DNA from: a virus | Strand: one strand, 5' to 3' | UHGV virus genome: UHGV-0037186 | DNA length: 10,400 nt | Shown: in pieces, positions 3,561-10,350 of the stretch | How the letters are laid out: each line of letters begins with the position of its first letter | How positions within the stretch are numbered: position 1 is the first letter of the stretch | The notes under the pieces: generated by a model | Seen by the model: the letters and a program-made list of their open reading frames with translations, nothing else | Databases searched by the model: none | What the model was told of the DNA's origin: nothing | Translations under genes and position numbers: made by a program

Positions 3561-5900
3561 ATGGCAAAAGGCAAATCCGCACTGGCACTGGCGCTGAAAA
3601 AGAAAATCGGCAGCAATGACGAGATTCAGAAGGTCTCCCACTGGATTGACTCCGGTTTCCCTCCACTGAACAAAGCCATTTCCGGACGTTACGACGGTGG
3701 TTTTCCGTGTGGGCGTATCGTTGAAGTCTTCGGGCCACCAAGCGCGGGGAAATGTGTTACCGCAGACACCATGCTGCTGACGGAGCGTGGAATGGTAACA
3801 GTGAAAGAACTGTTTGAGATTGAGGGGCACAAAGCAACATGCACTACTCGCGATGTAGAGCATAACGTTGGACTCATCAATGAAAATGGCGTGATAGAGA
3901 AAACCTCACACCTGACATGGAACAACCGTCGCAAATTCAAGCGCATTAAGCTGGCATCAGGGGGTTACATCGAGGCTACGTTCCGTCACCCAATTCGTGT
4001 GGTTGACGACTTAGGCAATATCGTCTGGCGGTATGCTGAAAAAATCAGTGTAGGCGACACGATTCCTTCAATGGTTGGCACACATCAATTCGGCGATCAG
4101 CACTTGGATGCCAATATCGCAAAACTGATGGGCTATTTAATTGCTGACGGATACGTGGCCTCTGAAAATTCTGTGCATTTTTCTAACACAGATCCATTCA
4201 TCAAGGATGAGTACTACCGCCTCATTTCGCTGGTATCAGACAAGATGCCAGTTACGAGAAAACATAACGGCTCGGAAGACCATGTGCTGTTTAGCAAAGA
4301 GGTGCGTTCGCTGCTTTTTAAAGAATATGGTCTGGAGTATGAGAAAGCTGCTGGCAAGCAGGTTCCGTTGAGTGTGCGTCGCGCCAATAGCGAGGCTCAA
4401 ATTGCATTCCTTCGCGGCTACTTTGAGCTGGAATGCCACGTCAATGATGGTCGCTGCATTGAGGTTGTGAGCGCGAGTGGGCTGCTGCTACAGCAAATTC
4501 GCCTCATGCTCCTGAATCTGGGGATTACGTCAACTATCTCTGAAAAACACGTCGCAGGTTATAAAAACATATATTACCGGCTGTCATTCAGTGGCTCTAA
4601 CTACGACCTTTTCCTGTCAACGATTGGGTTCGAGTCTCCGGCTCGTTTAGCAGTGGCAACCAAACGGGACATTAGTTTTGACCGCACTTATTTAGGCTAC
4701 GTTCCGCACATCAGCGGCTTAGTGAAATCACTCTACGAGTCACTCACCAAGACCTCTCGTAAAGACTACGTTCTGGTAGATCACGTTATTGGCCGCGGCG
4801 ATCGTGTCGGAATAGACAAACTGCGAGAAATCTATGTCTCCTTCATTGGCAGAAAGAATCGTTTTAACGAGCATCTGTTTGCACAACTGGCAGCGGTAAT
4901 TGACTCTAACTTGTTCTACGACGAAGTCGTGGCTATTGAGGAAGGTGAAGCACCAACGTTCGACGTAGCGATGCCGGAAACACACTCTTTCTGGTCTAAC
5001 GGGATTATCAGCCACAACACATTCCTCGCGACGGCTGCGATGGTGTCAGCACAAAAACAGGATGGTCTGGCCGTATTCCTTGACCACGAAAACAGTTTCG
5101 ACGTTGGTCTGGCGGTAGCGAACGGACTGAACGCCGACGAAGACGACGGTCAGTGGGTCTACAAACAGCCGGATACCTTCGAAGACTCCGTAGAGCTGAT
5201 CGGCACAATCCTCAAGCTGGTGCGCGACGAAGAGCTTATTCCGGAAACAGCCCCTATCTGCATCGTAGCCGACTCTCTGGCGTCGATGGTTCCGAACTCG
5301 AAGGCTGAGAAGTTCGACAAGATGGCAGAAGGCACTGCGAAGGACAAAGATCAGCTGAACATGAACGACAACACGGCGCTGGCGCGCGCGACAAGTGCGA
5401 ACTTCCCTACTCTGGCGCTTTGGGCGCGTAAGTACAACGCGTGCATCATCTTCTTGAACCAGGTGCGTACCAAAATTGGTGTGATGTTTGGCGATCCGAC
5501 TACGTCTCCGGGTGGCGACTCTCCGAAGTTCTACGCGTCGGTGCGCATCCGTCTGGGTGCATCCGTCATGAAGGATGGCAAAGAGAAGATCGGACAGGAC
5601 GTTGGCGCCGAGTGCATTAAAAACAAAGTCGCACCTCCGTTTGGCAAATGCTCATGGAAATTCTACTTCGACCCGACTCGCGGGCTGGACGTCGTCGAGT
5701 CTCTGGTTGAATACATGCTGGAGGAAGGATACCTGCCCAAGAGCGCCAGCGGGCGTGTGGAAATTGGCGAGAAGAAATACACCAAATCACAGATCGTCGA
5801 GATGTACCGGGAGAAGCCATTAGCTGAAATCATTGCTGCGTTACAGGCAATAGATGACAGGCGCGAGAAGACATCACCGACAGATGAATTAGAAGATTAA
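3561..5900 (+). CDS. recA: RecA-family recombinase precursor (779 aa) containing an in-frame intein; predicted mature RecA ~357 aa
   Basis: SD AAAGGAG (3547-3553) 7 nt before ATG. N-extein ends GRIVEVFGPPSAGK (compare E. coli RecA GRIVEIYGPESSGKT). C-extein resumes with T and carries RecA-typical segments (FLNQVRTKIGVMFGDPTTSPGGDSPKFYASVRIRLG, compare E. coli [35 protein letters not shown]). Closer to bacterial RecA than to T4 UvsX, by recall. Followed by a terminator. Confidence 0.9.
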   Translation: MAKGKSALALALKKKIGSNDEIQKVSHWIDSGFPPLNKAISGRYDGGFPCGRIVEVFGPPSAGKCVTADTMLLTERGMVTVKELFEIEGHKATCTTRDVEHNVGLINENGVIEKTSHLTWNNRRKFKRIKLASGGYIEATFRHPIRVVDDLGNIVWRYAEKISVGDTIPSMVGTHQFGDQHLDANIAKLMGYLIADGYVASENSVHFSNTDPFIKDEYYRLISLVSDKMPVTRKHNGSEDHVLFSKEVRSLLFKEYGLEYEKAAGKQVPLSVRRANSEAQIAFLRGYFELECHVNDGRCIEVVSASGLLLQQIRLMLLNLGITSTISEKHVAGYKNIYYRLSFSGSNYDLFLSTIGFESPARLAVATKRDISFDRTYLGYVPHISGLVKSLYESLTKTSRKDYVLVDHVIGRGDRVGIDKLREIYVSFIGRKNRFNEHLFAQLAAVIDSNLFYDEVVAIEEGEAPTFDVAMPETHSFWSNGIISHNTFLATAAMVSAQKQDGLAVFLDHENSFDVGLAVANGLNADEDDGQWVYKQPDTFEDSVELIGTILKLVRDEELIPETAPICIVADSLASMVPNSKAEKFDKMAEGTAKDKDQLNMNDNTALARATSANFPTLALWARKYNACIIFLNQVRTKIGVMFGDPTTSPGGDSPKFYASVRIRLGASVMKDGKEKIGQDVGAECIKNKVAPPFGKCSWKFYFDPTRGLDVVESLVEYMLEEGYLPKSASGRVEIGEKKYTKSQIVEMYREKPLAEIIAALQAIDDRREKTSPTDELED
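3753..5018 (+). mobile_element. Intein (422 aa) with LAGLIDADG homing-endonuclease domain, inserted in the Walker A P-loop of the RecA-family gene
   Basis: Starts with Cys (codon 65, TGT 3753-3755) immediately after GPPSAGK. Ends ...GIISHN (His-Asn, codons 485-486) followed by Thr+1 (the Walker A Thr). Block B-like T-x-x-H (ATFRHPI). LAGLIDADG motifs LMGYLIADGYV (~4124-4156) and FLRGYFELECHV (~4407-4442). Length is a multiple of 3 (1266 nt) and in-frame. Confidence 0.85.
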
Positions 5901-5930: not shown

Positions 5931-5990
5931 CCTTGAAAATATATAAGCACTTACTTACCATCTACACACAATAGCCACATAGGAAAACAC

Positions 5991-6191
5991 ATGATCAAAC
6001 TCTATCTGATGGCAGTGGCTACAGGTATATCTGTAGTTTTCATCTACTGTTTGCTGGTTCCGTCGCTGATCTCGGCTAAAAGCAATATTGCCGTAATGCT
6101 TGGAATCATTGTTGCTTTTGGCGCTCCTGTTATCGGCTTTAATGTTGGTCGTAACTTTCTGAAGTCACTAATTAATTCGAAGGGGAAGTAA
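5991..6191 (+). CDS. Small hydrophobic membrane protein (66 aa, two predicted TM helices)
   Basis: AGGA (5981-5984) 6 nt before ATG. Two long hydrophobic stretches (LYLMAVATGISVVFIYCLLVPSLI and IAVMLGIIVAFGAPVIGF) with a basic C-terminus. Its stop overlaps the SD region of the next gene. Confidence 0.5.
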   Translation: MIKLYLMAVATGISVVFIYCLLVPSLISAKSNIAVMLGIIVAFGAPVIGFNVGRNFLKSLINSKGK

Positions 6192-6194
6192 GTA

Positions 6195-6386
6195 ATGAAG
6201 AAAGGTTTACTGGCAGTGATCGTGGCTGCTGTTTGCACAATGGGTCTTACAGGCTGCGATCGTGTTGAGCCTGGGTACGTTGGCATCAAAGTAAACAAAT
6301 TGGGTGAAGACAAAGGTATCGGTGAAGTTGTCGGCGTTGGCCGTCAGTGGACTGGTCTGAATACCGAGCTGTACACCTCTCTTTAA
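6195..6386 (+). CDS. Small lipoprotein (63 aa); possibly a truncated N-terminal fragment of an SPFH/band-7-type lipoprotein
   Basis: SD AAGGGGA 7 nt before ATG. Signal peptide MKKGLLAVIVAAVCTMG plus lipobox L-T-G-C. The mature part (VEPGYVGIKVNKLGEDKGIGEVV...) resembles the start of an SPFH domain, but the ORF stops after ~40 residues of it. Confidence 0.55.
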   Translation: MKKGLLAVIVAAVCTMGLTGCDRVEPGYVGIKVNKLGEDKGIGEVVGVGRQWTGLNTELYTSL

Positions 6387-6409
6387 GTCATCTTAAATGA
6401 CTCTGAGGT

Positions 6410-6457
6410 GTCTGTTAAACCTGTGGCGATTCAGTCTATTAAACCTGTGGCGATTCA
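6410..6457. repeat. Tandem direct repeat, 2 x 24 bp (GTCTGTTAAACCTGTGGCGATTCA / GTCTATTAAACCTGTGGCGATTCA), one mismatch
   Basis: Read directly from the sequence at 6410-6433 and 6434-6457. Lies in the 232-bp AT-rich non-coding spacer between the lipoprotein ORF and hsdM. Confidence 0.8.
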
Positions 6458-6618
6458 CTTTATGGTGTCATAAACTTAAATCTAGCGCCGGGTAGAACAA
6501 GTTAATCGAACGATGTAGCGGCCATTTAGGCGTTACAGAAAGAACAGAATTTTAAATTTATAGTGAAGCCGTTGCAGCAACTTTGTGGGGTGCAACCAAC
6601 ACTGAACAGGAAAAGAAA

Positions 6619-9042
6619 ATGGATCATAGTGTACATAACAAGCTCATCTCATTTATTTGGAACATTGCCGACGACTGTTTACGTGATGTGTACGTTCGCG
6701 GTAAGTACCGCGATGTGATTTTACCTATGGTGGTATTACGACGTTTAGATACGTTACTTGAACCCACCAAAGAAGCCGTGCTTGAAGAGGTCAAGTTCCA
6801 AAAAGAAGAGATGCAAGCCACGGAGCTTGATGATGAACCATTGAAGGCGGCTAGTGGTTATGTTTTTTACAATACATCTAAATGGACCCTGAAATCCCTG
6901 TTCAACACCGCAACGAATAACCAACAGATATTACTCGCCAACTTTGAAGAGTACCTGCTTGGCTTTAGCGATAATGTTAAAGAAATCATTGAATGCTTTA
7001 ACCTCAAGTTGCAAATTCGTCACATGGCCTCAAAGCAAGTCCTTCTTGATGTCGTCGAAAAGTTTGTTTCCCCTTACATCAACTTAACTCATGAAACGGT
7101 CGAAGACCCAGATGGCAACAAGATGCCAGCCCTTACTAACCTGGGTATGGGGTACGTGTTCGAAGAGTTGATCCGTAAGTTCAACGAAGAAAACAACGAA
7201 GAAGCCGGTGAGCACTTTACACCTAGGGAAGTGATTGAGCTGATGACACACTTGGTTTTTGACCCAGTGAAAGAGCAGCTACCATTGACCATGACCGTTT
7301 ACGACCCTGCGTGTGGTAGCGGTGGTATGCTCACTGAATCTCAAAACTTCATTGAAGAGAAATACCCGAACGACAGCCGAGATATTTACCTTTACGGCAA
7401 AGAGATCAATGACGAGACCTACGCGATTTGTAAATCGGACATGATGATCAAAGGCAACAACCCTGAGAACATCAAAGTAGGCTCAACCTTGTCTACCGAC
7501 GAGTTTGCGGCTTCACGCTTTGACTTTATGTTGTCTAACCCGCCATACGGTAAGAGTTGGGCGTCTGAACAGAAGTACATTAAAGACGGCAGTGATGTGA
7601 TTGACCCGCGTTTTAAGGTTAGCCTGAAAGACTATTGGGGAAATCTCGAAGTGGTGGATGCCACGCCACGTTCGAGTGATGGCCAGCTGCTTTTCTTAAT
7701 GGAGATGGTCAACAAGATGAAAGATCCGAGCGTAAGTCCATTAGGCAGCCGGATTGCCTCTGTTCATAACGGCTCATCGCTCTTTACCGGTGATGCGGGC
7801 GGTGGCGAAAGTAATATTCGTCGCTTCATCATTGAAAACGACATGCTAGATGCCATCGTTCAGTTACCTAATAACCTGTTCTATAACACTGGCATTACCA
7901 CTTACATTTGGGTGTTGAGCAACAATAAACCTGAGGCGCGTAAAGGTAAGGTGCAATTAATTGATGCCAGCTTGCTCTACCGTAAGTTGCGCAAGAACTT
8001 AGGTAACAAAAACTGCGAATTTGCGCCTGAGCACATCACGGAAATTACCGATACTTACCTCGCGTGTAAGGATGTTGAAAGAGCACTGGATGCAAACAAT
8101 GATCCTGTTGGCATCGCCAGTAAGGTATTCAGCAATGACGATTTTGGCTACTACAAAGTCACTATCGAGCGCCCAGATCGCCGCAAAGCCAAGTTTACTC
8201 AAGATGCCATAGCCCCACTGCGTTTTGATAAGCAACTTAGTGAAGTGATGGAGTACGTGTACGCAGAGCACGGCGAACGTGTTTACGAAAAAACTGGCTA
8301 CGGGTCAGATCAGAAAAAGAGCTTCTTAAAATCCATCGAGAAAGACATTCTTTCTTGGTGTGAAGATAACGACATCAGTCTCAATGCTAAGGCTAAGGCC
8401 AAACTGCTTGATGTGAAACACTGGCTGGCGCTAAAAGCATTGCTTGAAACTGCACAAACGCTGATGGCTGACATCGGTAGCATTGAATTTGATGACTTCA
8501 ATAGCTTTAAAACCCAAGTTGATAAATCGCTAAAAGCCCATGCTATTAAGCTTTCAGCACCTGAGAAAAATGCCATTCTTCACGCGGTGAGCTGGTATGA
8601 CGAAACCGCCAAGAAAGTGGTTAAAAAGGTAGTTAAATTAACGGGTGATAAATTAAACGACCTGCTGGAGCGCTATGAGTGTGAAGTCGCTGACTTGCCA
8701 GATTTTGGTTATTACCCCGTTCCTTCAGCAGAAGGCGGTAAAAAAGGCGAGTATATCACTTACGAGACCAATTCAGACCTGCGAGATACAGAATCTGTTC
8801 CATTAAAGCAAAGCATTTACCAGTACTTCCTAGATGAAGTGAAGCCTCATGTCGATGAAGCATGGATAAACCTAGATACGGTAAAAATTGGCTATGAAAT
8901 CAGCTTCAATAAGTATTTCTACCGTCATAAACCGCTGCGTAGTTTAGAAGAGGTCGCAACCGACATCATCAACCTAGAACAAAAAGCCGAAGGTTTGATT
9001 GCGCAGATTCTTGGTGCGGAAGTAAAAAAGGTTCAGGGGTAA
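6619..9042 (+). CDS. hsdM: Type I restriction-modification system, DNA methyltransferase subunit M (N6-adenine), unusually long (~807 aa)
   Basis: SD AGGA (6608-6611) 7 nt before ATG 6619; the track's 6583 start is an upstream TTG extension. HsdM N-terminal domain signature (LISFIWNIADDCLRDVYVRGKYRDVILPMVVLRRLD), FTPREV, AdoMet motif I DPACGSGGML (~7303-7332) and catalytic motif IV NPPYG (~7537-7551). About 330 aa extend beyond the catalytic core. Confidence 0.9.
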   Translation: MDHSVHNKLISFIWNIADDCLRDVYVRGKYRDVILPMVVLRRLDTLLEPTKEAVLEEVKFQKEEMQATELDDEPLKAASGYVFYNTSKWTLKSLFNTATNNQQILLANFEEYLLGFSDNVKEIIECFNLKLQIRHMASKQVLLDVVEKFVSPYINLTHETVEDPDGNKMPALTNLGMGYVFEELIRKFNEENNEEAGEHFTPREVIELMTHLVFDPVKEQLPLTMTVYDPACGSGGMLTESQNFIEEKYPNDSRDIYLYGKEINDETYAICKSDMMIKGNNPENIKVGSTLSTDEFAASRFDFMLSNPPYGKSWASEQKYIKDGSDVIDPRFKVSLKDYWGNLEVVDATPRSSDGQLLFLMEMVNKMKDPSVSPLGSRIASVHNGSSLFTGDAGGGESNIRRFIIENDMLDAIVQLPNNLFYNTGITTYIWVLSNNKPEARKGKVQLIDASLLYRKLRKNLGNKNCEFAPEHITEITDTYLACKDVERALDANNDPVGIASKVFSNDDFGYYKVTIERPDRRKAKFTQDAIAPLRFDKQLSEVMEYVYAEHGERVYEKTGYGSDQKKSFLKSIEKDILSWCEDNDISLNAKAKAKLLDVKHWLALKALLETAQTLMADIGSIEFDDFNSFKTQVDKSLKAHAIKLSAPEKNAILHAVSWYDETAKKVVKKVVKLTGDKLNDLLERYECEVADLPDFGYYPVPSAEGGKKGEYITYETNSDLRDTESVPLKQSIYQYFLDEVKPHVDEAWINLDTVKIGYEISFNKYFYRHKPLRSLEEVATDIINLEQKAEGLIAQILGAEVKKVQG

Positions 9043-9048
9043 GTCGTT

Positions 9049-10350
9049 ATGATGAAGATTTCTGAAATGCCGAAATATGAGGTTTATAAGGATTCAGGTG
9101 TTGAATGGCTAGGGGATATTCCTGCGTCTTGGAGCTTATTAGCTAATAAGCACATCTTTCGCTTGAAGAAAAAACAGGTTGGAAAACGCTCAAGCGAATA
9201 TGATTTGCTATCGCTTACTCTCAGAGGTGTGATTAAGCGTGATATGGAAAACCCAGAGGGTAAGTTCCCAGCAGAGTTCGATACTTATCAAGAAGTGCAG
9301 TGTGGAGATTTCATTTTCTGCTTGTTCGACGTGGAAGAAACACCCAGAACTGTTGGGTTGTCGCCATTTAATGGGATGATTACTGGTGCATATACCGTTT
9401 TTGAACTAAATGACAATTTTGATAATAGGTTTTTATACTATTTTTATATGAACCTTGATGCAAAAAAGATGCTTAAACCGCTTTATCGTGGCCTGAGAAA
9501 TACAATTCCTAAAGATTCATTTCTGAGTTTTAAGACGTTTGTTCCTCCCCATGAGCAACAAACCCGTATCGCCAACTTCCTAGACAAGAAAACCGCTCTA
9601 ATCGACGAAGCGATTTCGATCAAAGAGCAGCAAATTAGCCTGCTGAAAGAGCGTAAGCAGATCATCATCCAACAGGCGGTGACCCAAGGGCTTGATCCCA
9701 ATGTGCCAATGAAAGACTCCGGTGTGGATTGGATTGGTAAGATTCCAGCGCATTGGGATATTGTGCCAGGATTTACAGTATTTAAAGAGGGAAAAGACTC
9801 GAACAAAGGGATGATTGAATCACAAGTTTTATCTCTCAGTTATGGAAATGTTATTATAAAACCAGAGGAGAAATTGGTTGGGCTTGTACCTGAGTCTTTT
9901 GAAACGTATCAAATAGCTTTACCTGGCGACATCATAATACGTTGTACAGACTTGCAAAATGACAAAACGAGCTTGAGAACGGGTATAGTGCGGAATAAAG
10001 GAATTATAACTAGTGCTTACCTTAACTTACGGTTGAAAACGGAACATTCAGCTGAATTTATGCATTATTTTCTTCATGTATTAGATATAACTAAAACTAT
10101 ATATCGTTTTGGTTCTGGGCTGAGACAAAACTTGAGTTATAAAGATTTTAAGCATATGAGAATATTGATGCCTCCTAAAGCAGAGCAAATTGAAATAGTA
10201 AATTACATCAATAATCAAGTAGAAGTGACTGAGTCATCTATTGATCTGATTAAAAATAAAATAGAAAAATTAAAAGAATACAAAACCACCCTGATCAACA
10301 GCGCCGTGACAGGAAAAATAAAAATCACCCCAGAAATGGTTGAGCAATAG
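9049..10350 (+). CDS. hsdS: Type I restriction-modification system, specificity subunit S (two target-recognition domains)
   Basis: Starts 6 nt after the hsdM stop (translational coupling). Internal duplicated architecture typical of HsdS: TRD1 begins SGVEWLGDIPASWSL, TRD2 begins SGVDWIGKIPAHWDI; conserved central region (PPHEQQTRIANFLDKKTALIDEAI) and C-terminal region (PPKAEQIEIVNYINNQVEVTESSI). The 3' half is very AT-rich. Confidence 0.85.
   Translation: MMKISEMPKYEVYKDSGVEWLGDIPASWSLLANKHIFRLKKKQVGKRSSEYDLLSLTLRGVIKRDMENPEGKFPAEFDTYQEVQCGDFIFCLFDVEETPRTVGLSPFNGMITGAYTVFELNDNFDNRFLYYFYMNLDAKKMLKPLYRGLRNTIPKDSFLSFKTFVPPHEQQTRIANFLDKKTALIDEAISIKEQQISLLKERKQIIIQQAVTQGLDPNVPMKDSGVDWIGKIPAHWDIVPGFTVFKEGKDSNKGMIESQVLSLSYGNVIIKPEEKLVGLVPESFETYQIALPGDIIIRCTDLQNDKTSLRTGIVRNKGIITSAYLNLRLKTEHSAEFMHYFLHVLDITKTIYRFGSGLRQNLSYKDFKHMRILMPPKAEQIEIVNYINNQVEVTESSIDLIKNKIEKLKEYKTTLINSAVTGKIKITPEMVEQ

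Follow-up and report, generated by a model that had tools for sequence, protein, structure and literature searches.

The promoters of IS3-family insertion sequences are located in the IRL, and hairpins that sequester the Shine-Dalgarno sequence of orfA are of a type that blocks the translation of read-through transcripts. For one member of this family, ISEhe3, the ISfinder reference is the copy from pPATH of Erwinia herbicola/Pantoea agglomerans. A 92-aa ISEhe3 orfA has also been annotated in Shigella (PMC4924310). The ends of such elements can be brought together in several ways. In IS circles and dimers, an IR-IR junction is formed in which the two ends lie tip to tip, in inverted orientation and 2-4 bp apart (PMC9333248; PMC2909936). 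Insertion targeted to the IR of another copy has been documented for IS30 and IS911 (PMC9333248). Nested IS-in-IS insertions and solo ends are found at the borders of genomic islands and cassettes. Plasmid iterons and the operators of C proteins consist of short direct repeats that precede a gene.

The locus described here lies in a window of 10,400 nucleotides, which is the whole stretch of DNA that was analyzed, and consists of two adjacent 24-mers in an AT-rich spacer upstream of the type I restriction-modification (R-M) gene hsdM. It seems probable, at odds of roughly three in four, that this tandem represents two IRL tips left by the insertion of one ISEhe3 copy, in the same orientation, 24 bp inside an older copy, and that the bodies of both elements were subsequently lost, leaving an inert scar. 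In origin, each 24-mer is a recognition end for the transposase (OrfAB). Overall, the tandem is what a known insertion sequence has left behind at a cassette border, and IS debris and nested IS copies are a familiar pattern.

Comparison with the systems above brings out both the likenesses and the differences. As in the left end of ISEhe3, the first 24-mer together with 36 bp on its inner side corresponds to bp 1-60 of a 1229-bp copy of the element, at 96.7% identity. Unlike ISEhe3 itself, the locus retains a stump of 59-60 bp and a solo 24-bp tip, possesses no transposase gene and no right end, and is not mobile. Like nested elements and solo ends at island borders, the junction is a pile-up of IS debris, with ISEhe3 present twice and IS911 present in a sister lineage. 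Comparable debris is seen elsewhere, as ISKpn26 and IS3 in the same upstream region and as IS629 within the ISEhe3 of another record (L069). The difference is that here the same IS occurs twice, both copies pointing the same way but offset by only 24 bp, mimicking a designed tandem. With the IR-targeted insertions of IS30 and IS911 the locus shares the arrival of an element from a copy-out-paste-in family at the end of a second copy (PMC9333248). However, their products are abutted, inverted IR-IR junctions, while here a tip lies against an inner edge, which is a better fit to ordinary insertion inside an end. Finally, plasmid iterons and C-protein operators are also short direct repeats upstream of a gene, but in this case there are two copies only, neither a Rep nor a C gene adjoins them, and the sequence is that of a mobile element.

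The two 24-mers and the left end of ISEhe3

In the window, GTCTGTTAAACCTGTGGCGATTCA at 6410-6433 is followed directly by GTCTATTAAACCTGTGGCGATTCA at 6434-6457. These 24-mers, referred to as copies 1 and 2, are direct (head to tail) with zero spacer and are identical at 23 of 24 positions, the sole mismatch being a G at 6414 versus an A at 6438. TRF reported a period of 24, 2.0 copies, 95% matches and a score of 89, and an independent repeat search of the window returned the same pair. Chance alone would give about 3e-9 pairs of adjoining 24-mers with one mismatch or none in 10.4 kb, and therefore the tandem is not a chance occurrence. The distance from the repeat to the downstream hsdM ATG (6619) is 162-209 nt, the position of this ATG being taken from the RefSeq annotation of a plasmid with identical DNA. 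The repeat falls in a non-coding gap of 232 bp, which extends from the stop of a 63-aa ORF (6386) to this ATG. Thus, the original prediction of a near-perfect 2 x 24-bp tandem, in a 232-bp gap and about 160-210 bp upstream of hsdM, proved accurate, and the inverted repeat GTTGCA(14)TGCAAC that it placed at 6571-6596 is present there. In the list of ORFs, none of at least 50 aa overlaps 6387-6562. An Rfam scan of 6150-6700 gave no match, and a search of the literature for the IR string returned chance matches only.

Copy 1 (6410-6433), which reads TGAATCGCCACAGGTTTAACAGAC on the minus strand, is the outer 24 bp of the IRL of a longer remnant. According to blastn, this remnant of an ISEhe3-like IS3-family element occupies 6374-6433 on the minus strand and corresponds to IS bp 1-60, comprising the IRL, an inward promoter and the leader. 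Its outer tip (TGA...) is at 6433, and its inner end is 3 bp short of the orfA ATG. Base 6374 is assignable to either the phage or the IS, so that the stump measures 59-60 bp. Matches to 6379-6433, at 90-100% identity, occur in 2134 plasmid records that span many Enterobacterales. Moreover, the IS end is carried by 2198 of the 5426 complete E. coli genomes searched (~40%), at up to 21 places per genome. Sought elsewhere, as originally proposed, the 24-mer therefore turned out to be a common repeat family scattered over host genomes, an outcome that the original prediction had listed as a refutation.

The limits of the element were defined by alignment of three unrelated plasmid contexts, which were pO157-like, IncHI2 and Klebsiella IncF. 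Leftward, the three share the reverse complement of ATGAGCGGTAAGCGTTATCC..., which encodes MSGKRYPEEFKIEAV..., an IS3-family OrfA (MSGKRYPEE...). Rightward, similarity stops exactly after ...GATTCA (6433) in all three, and the same exact stop is observed in a full chromosomal copy and in L069. The full chromosomal copy (L006:1501-2729) is 1229 bp in length, starts with TGAATCGCCACGGGTTTAACAGAC and ends with GTCTAGATTATCCGTGGCGATTCA. It possesses TGA...TCA ends flanked by a 3-bp direct repeat, CCG, and its CDS is annotated as an IS3 family transposase with a programmed frameshift (orfA/orfB). When this entire element was compared with the window by blastn, IS 1-60 aligned with 6433-6374 at 96.7% identity, and nothing else aligned. 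Copy 1 is identical at 24 of 24 positions to the allele in a further record, L003.

The minus strand reads TGAATCGCC... from both 6433 and 6457, which gives each 24-mer the terminal TG...CA of an IS3-family end. Terminal TG...CA, identity to a full element and a scattered, multi-copy distribution are all consistent with such an end. An intact, mobile ISEhe3 would also have an IRR and orfAB, and neither is present in the window or at the locus on plasmid L007. The name ISEhe3 is based on the UniRef label of an identical 92-aa OrfA ('ISEhe3 transposase A') and on the Shigella annotation (PMC4924310).

Two further features of an IS3-family left end were recognized in the stump. A consensus scan identified a promoter-like TTAACA-17-TAAGAT at 6390-6418 on the minus strand, which points into the missing IS and is presumably the IRL promoter of ISEhe3 itself. 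RNA folding predicted a leader hairpin at 6374-6410 on the same strand, in which CACCUC is paired with the orfA Shine-Dalgarno sequence GAGGUG. When folded on the identical stretch of L003, this hairpin had a free energy of -14.7 kcal/mol and a z of -2.86, with one of 200 shuffles being as good. The breakpoint between phage and IS DNA is located exactly at the base of the leader hairpin.

Copy 2 (6434-6457) is a solo 24-bp IRL tip that reads TGAATCGCCACAGGTTTAATAGAC on the minus strand. It is oriented as copy 1 is, with its inner edge against the outer tip of copy 1. The identification of copy 2 as an IRR was ruled out, because it agrees with the L006 copy at 18 of 24 positions for the IRR versus 23 of 24 for the IRL, and is identical over 24 of 24 positions to a natural IRL allele, TTTAATAGAC. 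It is the base distinguishing copy 2 from copy 1 that gives TTTAATAGAC on the IS strand (the T allele). A 42-mer with the T allele that reaches into the interior of the IS was found in 186 plasmid records. In L069, the T allele is carried by a genuine ISEhe3 copy with orfA, which is split by an IS629-type insertion accompanied by a 3-bp duplication. On this evidence, the two 24-mers look like the ends of two different IS copies, rather than a duplication followed by random mutation. The 186 records may all derive from one insertion, however, and the evidence from the allele may be thinner than the count.

Origin of the tandem

The nested insertion would have involved three steps. Initially, the hsdMSR cassette would have had a resident ISEhe3 of a slightly different allele on its upstream side, and the IRL tip of this copy would have been at 6457. 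A second ISEhe3 would then have entered the first in the same orientation, 24 bp from the tip. Lastly, both IS bodies would have been lost by later rearrangements. In the phage-plasmid lineage, this loss would have occurred by joining to an SPFH gene at a breakpoint that is not an IS end, and in the chromosomal lineage by the insertion of IS911 at about IS bp 43. In general, self-insertion in the same orientation at a distance of p bp from an end produces the last p bp of the newcomer followed by the last p bp of the resident, which is a perfect head-to-tail repeat with a unit of p. With p = 24, the structure observed is obtained and no coincidence is required. We infer the nested-insertion step from this geometry and from the allele match.

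The ancestral locus expected under nested insertion, either a full ISEhe3 with copy 2 and hsdM or a single IR next to hsdM, was found neither in the 5426 E. coli genomes nor in metagenome contigs. Similarly, the predicted reciprocal junction ...CTCTGAGGTGTC|TGAATCGCCACGG... was not found in the 5426 E. coli genomes. The lack of an ancestral nested structure and of a reciprocal junction, as well as the fact that the copies differ at one base only, would agree with a local event, in which the terminal 24 bp of one stump were duplicated in tandem by slippage, unequal exchange or an aberrant transposase event and a G-to-A change followed. Even so, a local duplication seems unlikely. It would need to end exactly at the IS tip, and its single mismatch would have to recreate by chance a natural ISEhe3 IRL allele. 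In addition, there are no flanking short repeats that could prime slippage, and copy number does not vary, with exactly two copies being present in the 29 plasmid records, in 8 metagenome contigs and in the chromosomal copies examined. The original prediction had included a duplication generated at an insertion junction among its alternatives. This was essentially correct. The tandem coincides with the exact left junction of the hsdMSR insert and is made up of two IS ends.

Two known routes by which IS ends become joined do not produce this arrangement. Insertion targeted to an IR, as described for IS30 and IS911, was ruled out as the direct cause because it yields tip-to-tip and not head-to-tail junctions (PMC9333248). 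Likewise, the IR-IR junction of the IS3 and IS30 families differs from the tandem, in which the copies are direct and have no spacer.

The distribution of the tandem bears on its age. Megablast of the 48-mer, for which seeding was possible only across the junction of copies 1 and 2, detected it in 29 plasmid records, and it adjoins this hsdM in every record inspected. The tandem junction pattern had 0 matches in 185,579 GTDB species-representative genomes. A looser pattern, with two tips 5-35 nt apart, had 45 matches in the GTDB representatives, 0 of them in Enterobacterales, and the taxa concerned have no evident link to ISEhe3. The hsdM region with the tandem is also present on E. coli chromosomes, at 73 chromosomal places in the search. 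In the two chromosomal islands examined, L009 and L010, the ISEhe3 stump stops at about bp 43, where it meets the right end of an IS911-type element (...CCACTTCA|TCTTAAATGAC...), and the tandem is intact. All of the metagenome contigs that contained copy 2 and the right flank (8/8) possessed either the SPFH or the IS911 left junction, always with two copies. Because the same tandem is found with two left junctions, the phage SPFH gene and the IS911 IRR, it must predate both. The stump is longer in the phage-plasmid form (60 bp) than in the chromosomal form (~45 bp), and neither form was derived from the other.

A further mosaic was noted upstream of the chromosomal cassette. At L009:8445-12000 there is a hybrid IS whose 5' half is of the IS629/IS1203 type and whose 3' half, with its IRR, is of the IS911 type. 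Between the two, a group II intron (ltrA with an internal stop) interrupts the transposase gene.

The repeat and the hsdM operon

To the right of the tandem, the plus-strand region 6458-6618, which includes the inverted repeat at 6571-6596, accompanies hsdM wherever the cassette is found, and it is identical in the phage-plasmid, chromosomal-island and metagenome copies. It is followed by hsdM (6619-9042, plus strand), which encodes the methyltransferase subunit of the type I R-M system and is annotated in RefSeq on identical DNA. The specificity subunit of 433 aa is encoded by hsdS (9049-10350, plus strand), as indicated by both the ORF list and RefSeq. With 807 aa, the HsdM protein is long.

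The leading idea of the original prediction was a regulator of the R-M genes that binds the 24-mers as iteron-like sites, in effect as operators for hsdM and hsdS. The position upstream of hsdM, the AT-rich spacer and the direct repeat would all suit such a role. However, the 24-mer is the end of a mobile element that occurs in thousands of unrelated contexts. No regulator is annotated in the cassette, whose annotated genes are hsdM, hsdS, a gene for a DUF4268 protein and hsdR only, and no Rep or C gene is adjacent. A consensus promoter scan of 6150-6700 detected no plus-strand promoter, either over the repeat or for hsdM.

An intact hsdM is also found in other lineages with an upstream region of only 22 or 93 bp. 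In one E. coli record (L070:2415-2605), the end of ISKpn26, an IS5-family element, is located at the equivalent of 6525/6526, 93 bp upstream of hsdM. In another (L071:2344-2534), the right end of IS3 is located at the equivalent of 6596/6597, 22 bp upstream of hsdM. The gene is annotated as intact in both records, and both lack the repeat; the record with IS3 also lacks the inverted repeat at 6571-6596. This comparison of sequences shows that the repeat can be dispensed with while an intact hsdM operon is kept. The repeat is thus unlike an iteron or operator array in that it is not specific to the operon, is not kept with every intact copy of hsdM (L070 and L071) and has no cognate regulator annotated nearby. 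Given that the 24-mer is a widespread IS3-family IR and that hsdM remains intact without it, the proposal of R-M regulator sites has almost nothing left to recommend it, and the repeat is not expected to act as a regulator of hsdM. More generally, caution is warranted where a near-perfect short tandem is found upstream of a gene, as it can be formed by IS ends out of register and need not be a regulatory array. The tandem itself raises no new biological question.

Five IS events are recorded within ~250 bp upstream of hsdM, namely ISEhe3 twice, IS911, ISKpn26 and IS3.

The phage-plasmid and the border of the R-M insert

By similarity, the window is part of an E. coli phage-plasmid of the SSU5/Cyrano type. 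Upstream of the repeat, the ORFs encode a gp32-like SSB, a 5'-3' exonuclease, a RecA-like protein, a 66-aa membrane protein and a lipoprotein, and they match those of the SSU5/Cyrano group of phage-plasmids. DNA identical to the window is found on about 30 plasmids of E. coli, Shigella and Enterobacter. Homology to the phages Cyrano, PhiR41_1 and SSU5 in blastn ends at 6374-6378. Specifically, the alignment of the window with Cyrano parts after ...CTGTAC, at 6374, inside a gene for a stomatin/SPFH lipoprotein. In Cyrano, this gene is 831 bp in length, encodes 276 aa and is labelled 'stomatin-like' (SPFH). On the basis of blastn and the Cyrano alignment, what remains of it in the window is a 5' remnant of ~60 codons with the signal peptide and lipobox (6195-6374, plus strand), from which the open frame extends into IS-derived DNA and reaches a stop at 6384-6386. 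The suspicion that the lipoprotein ORF might be truncated was therefore justified, with 63 aa in the window versus 276 aa in phage Cyrano. The truncated ORF (6195-6386) retains its lipobox, LTGC, and its signal peptide, and includes 4 codons of IS DNA before the stop. A 63-aa lipopeptide could still be produced from it.

The right border of the insert lies beyond the window and was located on the complete plasmid L007. There, hsdM and hsdS are followed by an unannotated gap, hsdR, a fragment of an IS3-family orfB, and then phage DNA again. The orfB fragment ends with ...GGCCAGTTTTTGTTGACCACTTCA at L007:21377, and the terminal string GGCCAGTTTTTGTTGACCACTTCA is printed in a study of the IS911 transpososome (PMC2909936). 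The border at L007:20760-21377 is a 3' fragment of IS911 orfB, and the tip of the IS911 IRR abuts phage DNA within a homologue of Cyrano gene 58. Judging from the two borders, the type I R-M cassette has replaced about 1.1 kb of an SSU5-like phage-plasmid, namely the 3' portion of the SPFH gene together with most of the gene that follows, and the 24-mer tandem marks the exact left border of the R-M insert. Since this left border does not coincide with an IS end, delivery of the insert as a simple composite transposon can be ruled out.

The interval between hsdS and hsdR differs in annotation. In chromosomal copies it encodes the DUF4268 protein (L009:15970-17133). No gene is listed for the corresponding interval of the plasmid (L007:16451-17660), which suggests either a pseudogene or an incomplete PLSDB gene table.

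It is conceivable that the tandem ends are active with ISEhe3 transposase supplied in trans, either as a hotspot for IS elements or as a boundary that mobilizes the R-M cassette between the chromosome and the phage-plasmid. The terminal TGA and the full 24-bp tip are kept, and the ~40% of E. coli genomes that carry the IS could provide the enzyme. Both chromosomes and phage-plasmids carry the cassette with IS debris on its flanks, several different IS elements lie within 250 bp upstream of hsdM, and there is the precedent of IR-targeted insertion by IS30 and IS911 (PMC9333248). Nevertheless, continued activity of the ends is highly improbable. Neither of the junctions between cassette and phage-plasmid is an ISEhe3 end, the left one being inside the IS at bp 59/60 and the right one being the IS911 IRR. 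No matching ISEhe3 IRR is present on the other side, and IR targeting gives tip-to-tip and not head-to-tail junctions. There is likewise very little to be said for the paired solo ends as a recruitment site, which would make the region upstream of hsdMSR a landing pad for IS3-family elements and help to shuttle the cassette.

The chief value of the tandem lies in annotation, in that it marks the exact left border of the type I R-M cassette in the SSU5-like phage-plasmid. The cassette brought with it IS debris that is common to an E. coli chromosomal island, and this shared debris documents an exchange of defence cargo between the chromosome and the phage-plasmid via IS-rich junctions.

Two additional observations concern the phage-plasmid genes to the left of the tandem. 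At 3561-5900, an intein that contains a LAGLIDADG homing endonuclease splits the RecA-like recombinase (779 aa), and the 779-aa protein is labelled as a 'LAGLIDADG family homing endonuclease' in RefSeq versus RecA in phage Cyrano. A 19-nt motif, TAGATRGTAAGTAAGTRCT, occurs in intergenic DNA at 1159-1177 on the plus strand and, inverted, at 5946-5964 on the minus strand, and this pair brackets the SSB/exonuclease/RecA block. The chance expectation for the motif is a mean of 0.01. The motif is shared with phage Cyrano, where it precedes the SSB gene (L008:1250-1268), and it may represent a promoter or operator motif of the phage-plasmid.
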